Shown here: positions 18,567 to 19,118 of the stretch, piece by piece | Layout: each line of letters opens with the position of its first letter | Numbering within the stretch: position 1 is the first letter of the stretch | Virus record (IMG/VR): IMGVR_UViG_2627853910_000005 | Strand: one strand, 5' to 3' | DNA length: 39,175 nt | Source: a virus | Taxonomy: Duplodnaviria; Heunggongvirae; Uroviricota; Caudoviricetes | Translations under genes and position numbers: made by a program | The notes under the pieces: model-generated | Databases searched by the model: none | What the model was told of the DNA's origin: nothing | Seen by the model: the letters and a program-made list of their open reading frames with translations, nothing else

Positions 18567-18734
18567 ATTTCCTCCGGAGAGCTTTAAACATGCATCGTGC
18601 GAACAACTTTAAGAAAACGCGTTCGATGTCGAACAAAAAACACTCAATTCGACATACAAAAAACAAACAACCATTAATAATCAATAAGATGCAAAGATGA
18701 TGGTGGCCGATAAAAATGCAAAAACTAGCCTTTT

Positions 18735-18775
18735 TCCGCGACGCTCCCGCCCCGTGGCAGGGACCCCCACTGGGA
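18735..18775 (-). other. Candidate cos site (cosN-like GC-rich element)
   Basis: The minus strand reads GGGGCGGGAGCGTCGCGG followed by an AT-rich tract about 180 bp upstream of Nu1, resembling the lambda cosN (GGGCGGCGACCT) to Nu1 arrangement. Confidence 0.3.
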
Positions 18776-19118
18776 GGACCCGACAGCCTGACAACCGTGA
18801 CGAGCATCTGAAACAGAGCGTTACATAATGGCATGGGGATAATTCAGAAGGACATCACAGCATGCCCACACAAATTAGTGTGAGTGTCCTGTTTCTTACT
18901 ACGCGCAGGACTGACGAGCATGAGGGGAAAATACGCGAACCGAAATGCCTTATCTTCAGAAATGCAGCCGGCATCCGAACTGGACGATATTGTAAATTCA
19001 CCTAAATACGAGGCATTGCTGTAGTTGAATTGCAGTACTGTATTAGCCTTACAGTGACAGAATACGATATTGACTCTGTCACTTGTGAAATGGTCAGAAT
19101 GGTTAGCAGTTATGGTGA

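Follow-up and report, generated by a model that had tools for sequence, protein, structure and literature searches.

The minus strand of positions 18567-18781, within the 39,175-nucleotide stretch of viral DNA that we analysed (hereafter, the window), is very probably the cos site, organized as cosQ-cosN-cosB, of a lambdoid, mEp460-like prophage of E. coli. This cos, which is of the mEp460/PhiR40 type, is apparently intact in a copy of the prophage from which head genes have been deleted. In the mechanism that we propose, the helix-turn-helix at the N terminus of the small terminase (TerS), a DUF1441 protein, would bind to the boxes of cosB, and IHF would bend the DNA between a box at the position of R3 and an inverted R2-like box. 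The large terminase (TerL), which is of the gpA type, would thereby be placed to nick cosN 12 nt apart, leaving the 5' overhang GGGCGGGAGCGT, and cosQ (GGGTCCT) would direct termination by a cut at the following cos along the concatemer. The element would be cut by its own terminase, and the proheads and tails would come from a related phage, either co-resident or superinfecting. We infer the nick positions, the binding by TerS and IHF, and the dependence of packaging on a helper from the comparisons described below. The site is a cos of an ordinary, well-understood type that extends the lambda paradigm and does not change it.

An earlier note on this DNA had flagged a GC-rich element at positions 18700-18800 as a candidate cos site. 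That element is found there on the minus strand, which is the one that we read, since transcription of the terminase genes runs leftward. The whole cos site, at approximately 18567-18781, exceeds the flagged 100 bp. Read on the minus strand, positions 18781-18736 give GGGTCCT, 22 nt, and then CCACG/GGGCGGGAGCGT/CGCGG, where the slashes mark the limits of the predicted cohesive end; the sequence across the site is ...ctgtc GGGTCCT cccagtgggggtccctgccacg / GGGCGGGAGCGT / cgcggaaaaaggctagtttttgcattttta.... The cosQ-like heptamer GGGTCCT occupies 18775-18781 (minus strand), which is -28 to -22 when counted from the nick predicted in the top strand, and the 22-bp cosN occupies 18736-18757 (minus strand). 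Staggered nicks are predicted after 18753 on the minus strand and after 18741 on the plus strand, which would yield a 12-nt 5' cohesive end, GGGCGGGAGCGT, at 18741-18752 (minus strand). A conserved block, CGCGGAAAAAGGCTAGTTTTT, follows cosN at 18720-18740 (minus strand), and its lambda counterpart is CGCGGGTTTTCGCTATTT. The AT-rich cosB, at 18567-18735 (minus strand), holds family-conserved boxes and an IHF consensus. It includes a leader at 18567-18624 (minus strand) with a conserved GTTGTTCGCACGATGCATGTTTAAAG; this leader is specific to the group of loci with 186-bp spacing and contains a Shine-Dalgarno sequence, GGAGG, at 18571-18575 (minus strand). The mEp460-type loci L011-L013 and 4F5 have the conserved leader in common with the window, although their R boxes differ.

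The base composition of the region bears out the layout described in the earlier note, which was a GC-rich element followed by AT-rich sequence. The G+C content of positions 18736-18790 is 78%, the highest among all 55-nt stretches in the 39-kb window, and a fraction of 2.6e-5 of all 55-nt windows attains it. From cosN toward the TerS gene, the following 169 bp have a G+C content of 35.5%, compared to 48.3% for the window as a whole. In the window, there is one occurrence of the composite pattern GGGTCCT-N20-24-CGGGGCGG-N6-CG, and in 100 dinucleotide shuffles there is none. Counted from 18752, where the predicted cohesive end begins, the TerS ATG at 18566 is 186 bp away, close to the figure of about 180 bp upstream of the small terminase gene given in the earlier note.

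We compared the site with the cos of lambda. The same GGGTCCT heptamer is present in lambda at 48473-48479, with a spacer to the nick of 23 nt as compared to 22 nt in the window. The two cosN sequences are identical at 16 of 22 positions and have in common both nick-flanking CG dinucleotides as well as the end's left half, GGGCGG. Within the 12-nt end, lambda is identical to GGGCGGGAGCGT at 8 of 12 positions; bp 1-6 are the same, and the mismatches fall at bp 7, 8, 9, and 11. The right end of lambda reads ...cGGGTCCTttccggtgatccgacaggttacg and its left end reads GGGCGGCGACCTcgcgggttttcgctattt, with Nu1 starting from bp 191, and its cohesive end lies 190 bp from the TerS ATG as compared to 186 bp in the window. 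Two-fold symmetry of the 22-bp cosN extends to 12 of 22 positions in the window and to 10 in lambda. Thus, the candidate cos of the earlier note matches lambda in cosQ, in cosN, and in the distance to the TerS gene, and it is further supported by the records of phages Tritos and cdtI, which are linearised at the junction.

The site of Salmonella phage Gifsy-1, which we read directly, is GGGTCCT-23 nt-ttacg/GGGCGGCAGCGT/cgcagg. Its cosQ heptamer and CG flanks are the same as those of the window, its cosN is identical at 18 of 22 positions, and its end, GGGCGGCAGCGT, is identical to GGGCGGGAGCGT at 11 of 12 positions, with bp 7 as the sole difference. All of the differences in the end, whether from lambda or from Gifsy-1, therefore fall within bp 7-12, the tolerant right half. 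Lambda-like phages have a conserved cosQ and conserved CG flanks, and their natural variation lies chiefly in bp 7-12; Gifsy-1, which is counted as lambda-like, differs from lambda at bp 8, 9, and 11 (PMC4669245). Judged by its cosQ, its CG flanks, and its predicted 12-nt end, the site in the window has the properties by which a cos is counted as lambda-like (PMC4669245). The remainder of the packaging region differs between the two prophages: Gifsy-1 has a TerS of the Nu1/phage-21 type and lambda-type R sequences in its cosB, whereas the window has a DUF1441 TerS and other boxes.

The core of the site is conserved well beyond the window. We examined 66 loci, taken from one genome per species, that encode relatives of the window TerS, and 57 of them have the cosQ-cosN-block architecture at 88-235 bp upstream of the TerS start codon. 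The loci come from Escherichia, Citrobacter, Klebsiella, Kosakonia, Enterobacter, Serratia, Tatumella, Pasteurellaceae, Psychromonas, and others. The family architecture can be written as GGGTCCT or AAAGGTACTCC, approximately 22 nt, (C)CACG, a 12-nt end beginning with GGG, and CGCGG-N5-GGCTAGTTTT, the predicted nicks falling on either side of the end. The last of these, CGCGG-N5-GGCTAGTTTT, is near-invariant in the 57 loci across many genera, and GGGTCCT likewise occurs upstream of DUF1441 TerS genes in many genera. The spacing between cos and the DUF1441 TerS gene has modes at 129/130, and the window belongs to a group at 186. We also compared 75 IMG/VR copies of the post-cosN block. The end GGGCGGGAGCGT is present in 57 of the 75, and all but two of the variants alter only bp 7, 11, or 12; GGGTCCT stands at -28 to -22 in 72 copies, and CCACG stands ahead of the nick in 71.

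Evidence bearing on the position of the nick comes from phage records that end there. The records of Tritos (OV696610) and cdtI (AB285204) begin with GGGCGGGAGCGT and finish with ...CCTGCCACG. In the linear Tritos record, the end is ...gggtcctcccggtgggggcccctgccacg and the start is gggcgggagcgtcgcggaaaaaggctagtttttgcattt, and the same is true of cdtI; in a long alignment, position 1 of Tritos corresponds to window position 18752. The ends of the Tritos and cdtI records thus coincide with the predicted nick, although they may have been assigned by comparison with lambda. In strain LF82, Tritos resides as an active prophage that gives virions and plaques (PMC9928086), and the paper describing it does not mention cos (PMC9928086). 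The mEp460_4F5 record starts 5 nt upstream of the junction and has 2 nt missing inside the end. When we searched IMG/VR for contigs terminating at the nick, the matches were prophage-derived UViGs in which the site is internal, and so they say nothing about physical ends. A full-text literature search with the cohesive-end sequence returned one unrelated match only, and a literature search for DUF1441 together with terminase returned annotations only. The paper on Ayreon merely "expects" a cos upstream of TerS.

The window encodes both terminase subunits. The small terminase, at 18075-18566 (minus strand), is a 163-residue DUF1441 protein with an N-terminal helix-turn-helix (PF07278, E 4.6e-44). 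The large terminase, at 15973-18075 (minus strand), is a full-length, 700-residue protein of the gpA type with ATPase and endonuclease domains, and each of its Pfam matches, GpA_ATPase (8.6e-72) and GpA_nuclease (1.2e-85), is aligned end to end. The earlier note had named the small terminase Nu1. This name must be given up, since our comparisons do not show the window TerS to be a member of the Nu1 family: a Pfam search with the window TerS gave the DUF1441 match and no match to Nu1 (PF07471), BLASTP against lambda Nu1 returned no alignment, and the profile match is weak. A profile built from 26 members of the TerS family and aligned with Nu1 by HHalign is colinear over 114 columns with a probability of 36% and an E value of 3.7e-4, and this alignment takes in the N-terminal helix-turn-helix (LNINQLAALSGLHRQTV versus VNKKQLADIFGASIRTI). 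Our search for a solved homologue of the window TerS found no detectable relative. The window TerS nevertheless appears to work like Nu1. The same TerS, with 100% identity, is found in phages PhiR40_1, PhiR47_1, PhiR55_1, and vB_EcoS-606R10.

As in lambda, cosB in the window is AT-rich, with a direct box and an inverted box on either side of an IHF-type site, and the TerL of both is of the gpA family; however, the cosB boxes of the window are unrelated in sequence to the R sites of lambda, which are of the CGTTTCC type. We regard these boxes as candidate TerS sites, and their assignment to individual R sites as provisional. The box at the R3 position, CCACCATCATC, lies at +47 to +57 (18696-18706, minus strand). 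A triplet-repeat box is found family-wide at approximately +44 to +57. Most members have CATCATCATC there, the mEp460-like members and others have CATCACCACCA, and a third class has GCAGCAGCA. The class of box shifts with what is predicted to be the recognition helix in the helix-turn-helix of TerS, in that a helix with HRQT... pairs with CAT and CAC boxes, and one with NRN..., HRD..., or GRN... pairs with CAG and CGG boxes.

The R2-like box, ATGTCGAA, lies at +98 to +105 (18648-18655, minus strand) and is inverted relative to R1, and the R1-like box, GTTCGACATC, lies at +119 to +128 (18625-18634, minus strand) with a short dyad, GTTCGA-CA-TCGAAC, around it. The R2-like box coincides in position with the family box (G/A)ATGTCGAA, and the R1-like box corresponds to the family box GTTCA(C/T)CATC. 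Positions 18648-18655 and 18626-18633 are perfect inverted copies of each other over 8 bp, separated by 14 nt; Gifsy-2 has the R2-like box and the same inverted-repeat arrangement. We had considered that the window might contain three related R sites and do not claim this, since the likeness of the R3-position box to the R2/R1 boxes in the window is at chance level (12 of 16 as compared to 12.0 of 16 in shuffles). For the family, the corresponding value of 13.3 of 16 is modestly above the 11.7 of 16 obtained in shuffles.

For the IHF site that the earlier note had suggested looking for, there is a one-mismatch candidate on the opposite strand. This candidate, AATCAATAAGATG, lies at +62 to +74 (18679-18691, plus strand) and has one mismatch to the consensus WATCAANNNNTTR. 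Throughout the family, the opposite strand carries an IHF consensus whose offset is constant at +62 to +64. A match with no more than one mismatch at the same offset and on the same strand is found in 30 of 42 distinct members, as compared to 3.3 predicted by shuffles, and 12 of the 42 have the perfect consensus, as compared to 0.2 predicted. Taken alone, the 8-bp inverted repeat and the one-mismatch IHF match are each weak. For lambda, we take R3 to lie at approximately +52, R2 at approximately +108, and R1 at approximately +153, with I1 between R3 and R2. The order and orientation of R3-I1-R2-R1 are mirrored in the window at +47, +62, +98, and +119, and the IHF-type site at +62 to +74 presumably corresponds to I1.

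The relatives that encode an identical TerS also agree with the window in the cos itself. PhiR40_1 has the same cosQ, cosN, post-cosN block, R-like boxes, IHF-like site, and TerS, and the two substitutions that separate it from the window between cosN and the ATG are both outside the cos elements. PhiR40.1, PhiR47.1, and PhiR55.1 have been used as infective phages (PMC13190303). In their structural and early genes, PhiR40_1, PhiR47_1, PhiR55_1, and mEp460-like phages are approximately 95-97% identical to the window over 42-79% of each window half. These phages keep the portal, capsid, and connector genes, whereas the prophage in the window is without them. Over the 1.4 kb around cos, the window is 99.9-100% identical to the prophages of S88, APEC O1, and FY26, which have the full gene set.

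The earlier note had described the prophage as defective, and it was right to do so. We had considered an intact prophage collinear with those of S88 and FY26, and this reading was rejected when the list of open reading frames and a BLAST map exposed a 5.5-kb deletion. In the list, the tape-measure gene lies merely 1.3 kb past the large terminase gene. In the BLAST map against S88, there is a clean loss of 5,519 bp, with 15574/15575 joining positions 23827 and 29347 of the S88 locus. The junction (GTGAGCAGGCCCGTTAAAACCTGACGGAGCC) has a 2-nt microhomology and is flanked on either side by sequence with 99.9% identity to S88, which suggests that the deletion is recent. A remnant of the portal gene, 63 codons followed by a stop, is left at 15573-15764 (minus strand), a segment that takes in the deletion junction. 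The genes that have been lost are the rest of the portal gene, a ClpP-protease/major-capsid fusion, a DUF2190 gene, and the adaptor, together with Z-like and U-like (gpU-like) genes and the greater part of the major tail gene. None of the 5,426 complete E. coli genomes that we searched has the junction; outside the window, it is present in IMGVR_UViG_2579778654_000002, which is 100% identical to window positions 13117-24352.

The deletion leaves cos, TerS, and TerL intact while essential morphogenesis genes are gone. We estimate the deleted element at approximately 41 kb by adding what remains of the right end, as seen in S88, to the 39.2 kb of the window; related phages are 42-46 kb. By the packaging rules of lambda, an element of approximately 41 kb should remain packageable. 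The earlier note had supposed that a helper phage with matching terminase specificity would be needed, and this is the part of its proposal that we would change. Because TerS and TerL are both retained intact by the element itself, a helper must supply proheads and tails and has no need of a matching terminase; one that belongs to the same cosB class would nevertheless serve as well. There is a precedent in O157 Sakai, in which head-defective lambdoid prophages are packaged via complementation by co-resident prophages (Asadulghani 2009, PMC2669165). The defective Sakai prophages combine a head defect with an intact cos and terminase, as does the prophage in the window, which makes the latter a candidate for complementation by a resident relative. 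In the Sakai case, packaging and transfer have been measured, whereas the element in the window is known from sequence alone.

Three other explanations were weighed against that of a usable cos. The site could be a relic that is never used, either because the deleted prophage cannot induce, excise, or replicate or because no compatible helper is available. The loss of 5.5 kb of essential morphogenesis genes would fit a relic, as would an early region that is mosaic relative to S88 and a junction so rare that it was found in none of the 5,426 complete genomes and in one IMG/VR contig. However, cos, TerS, and TerL are without decay, with boxes the same as those of PhiR40_1 and a TerS that is 100% identical; the 99.9% identity to S88 on both sides of the junction points to a recent deletion; and related helpers of the same TerS class are common in E. 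coli. We consider it unlikely, then, that the site is a relic. Another explanation accepts the cos as genuine and supposes that its nicks or overhang are unlike the predicted lambda-like 12-nt 5' end. Gifsy-2 and a subgroup with ACCGAG/GGGGCG...ACA/CGCGG do deviate near the nick flanks, and the mEp460_4F5 record opens 5 nt upstream with 2 nt fewer inside the end. Against this, lambda and Gifsy-1 have the same two CG flanks and the same GGGCGG left half, and two independent records follow the exact convention of a 12-nt end, so we judge a different overhang to be very improbable.

The GC-rich element might instead be a terminator, a structured RNA, or a small open reading frame that resembles cosN by chance. 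Open reading frames of 92 residues (18556-18834, minus strand) and 43 residues (18697-18828, plus strand) do overlap it, and automated annotation of some phage records has put "hypothetical proteins" there. The overlapping frames belong to no family (for the 92-residue frame, none in Pfam), though, and RefSeq has no annotated CDS at this place in S88 or FY26. No terminator-like hairpin was found in 18700-18800, and the terminator, hairpin, and small-ORF readings were rejected on these grounds. A chance resemblance is also at odds with the composite cosQ-cosN pattern, which did not occur in 100 shuffles, with conservation that is block-wise and not codon-like, and with phage records that are linearised exactly at the junction. 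We therefore give almost no credence to this explanation, and a cosQ-cosN-cosB site of the mEp460-like prophage remains our preferred reading.

For genome annotation, a cos at this position would settle where the genome ends lie and what makes up the packaging module in a lambdoid prophage family that is common in E. coli (ExPEC/APEC). The morphogenesis-deleted copy appears to keep all that is needed for cutting and, with borrowed capsids, for transfer. This bears on the horizontal spread of the cargo of the element, as with the "defective prophage pool" of O157. A modest by-product of the comparisons, which may interest specialists in packaging, is that cosB boxes are conserved upstream of DUF1441 terminases together with an IHF site at a fixed position, and that several cosB/TerS cassettes stand behind one cosQ-cosN.

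It is conceivable, although we put this forward tentatively and with some doubt, that phages with a DUF1441 TerS make up a widespread, undescribed lambda-like packaging lineage in Enterobacterales, Pasteurellales, Marinobacter, and Psychromonas. Such a lineage would be characterized by short triplet-repeat cosB boxes (CAT, CAC, and CAG classes) that track the TerS recognition helix, by a fixed-offset IHF site amid the cosB boxes, by specificity cassettes that are swapped behind one cosQ-cosN core with a breakpoint at approximately +39, and, in many members, by the non-lambda motif AAAGGTACTCC in place of cosQ. If this were true, then the element in the window would be a terminase-plus-cos "capsid borrower," akin to a nascent satellite.

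The modular arrangement of cosB and TerS can be seen among close relatives of the window. In lambda and phage 21, cosQ and cosN are identical, whereas the specificities of cosB and TerS differ (PMC4669245). HannyBb, Tritos, and cdtI have the sequence of the window in common through cosQ and cosN up to +39 (window position 18714); from +40 onward, they have another cosB, and their TerS is 42% identical to that of the window. In cdtI and Tritos, cosB past +40 has a GGCGGCGGCAGCATG box, and the head and tail genes are close to those of the window. A cosQ-cosN held in common with a different cosB and TerS implies that cdtI and Tritos would have a different packaging specificity. Among IMG/VR contigs, at least four classes of cosB are found behind the same cosN block.

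The sequence shared around the predicted nick ends at a mosaic breakpoint located at 18713/18714 of the window, at position +39 from the nick. Phages HannyBb, Tritos and cdtI are identical or nearly identical to the window across cosQ and cosN as far as this breakpoint; beyond it, they carry another cosB and a TerS that is only 42% identical to that of the window. Among IMG/VR contigs, we observed the same cosN block followed by at least four classes of cosB.

Variation was also observed at the cosQ position, approximately 22-29 nt upstream of the nick, where AAAGGTACTCC replaces GGGTCCT in many members of the family. 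The compared loci with AAAGGTACTCC at this position are L023, L032, L034-L036, L045-L063, L070-L072 and L078 (Gifsy-2), and all of the Pasteurellaceae loci in the set have it there. Among lambda-like phages, natural variation of cosQ has been reported as "not apparent" (PMC4669245).

The sequence leading into TerS differs between spacing groups. In the group with 129/130-bp spacing (L019-L044 and similar loci), a conserved GTTCA(C/T)CATC box, in the last 10 nt before the ATG, adjoins the TerS start codon, and no recognizable Shine-Dalgarno sequence is present. The spacing group to which the window belongs has an additional conserved leader of approximately 57 bp and a strong GGAGG. The R1-like box of the window overlaps a weak dyad resembling a terminator (TGTTCGACATCGAACG, then CGTTTTCTTA; 18620-18635, minus strand), and this dyad is not kept in mEp460-type relatives.

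The record for phage mEp460_4F5 (L076) starts with CCACG|GGGCGGGAGCG-CGG, 5 nt ahead of the nick position predicted here, and 2 nt (TC) are missing where its cohesive-end sequence finishes. The missing TC and the shifted start may reflect misassembly at the physical ends of the DNA.

Locus L085 (IMGVR_UViG_2574179916_000005, 96-11448) contains a pair of cos cores that share one orientation and lie 10,671 bp apart. The order is cos, DUF1441 TerS, gpA TerL (truncated past its ATPase domain), integrase, Bro-N, an AAA_25 helicase-like gene, SSB, a ClpP/capsid fusion, the other cos and a TerS of the Tritos type. Possible readings of this locus are a PICI-like satellite that forms capsids, or remnants in tandem, in either case with the same cosQ-cosN.

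Relative to the S88 and APEC O1 prophages, the window is missing 5,519 bp at a junction (15574/15575, within 15573-15764) with 2 nt (TA) of microhomology. The deletion removed the protease/capsid fusion, the connector genes, a gpU-like gene, most of the major tail gene and the portal, of which a 63-aa stub remains. The junction was found in none of 5,426 complete E. coli genomes; it is also present in IMGVR_UViG_2579778654_000002.

Between Q/lysis and cos (approximately 19621-24646) lies a moron-type gene cluster, comprising cspF, cspB, cspI, ymcF, ynfU, ynfN and gnsB as annotated in the collinear S88 region; the Tritos homologs of this cspF-gnsB cluster are highly expressed in lysogens (PMC9928086). 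In a relative of the window's prophage in E. coli FY26 (L201, 1-8620), an immunity segment encoding a LexA-family repressor, YdaS and YmfL is present in 3-4 tandem copies, with partial pseudogene copies between the repeats.
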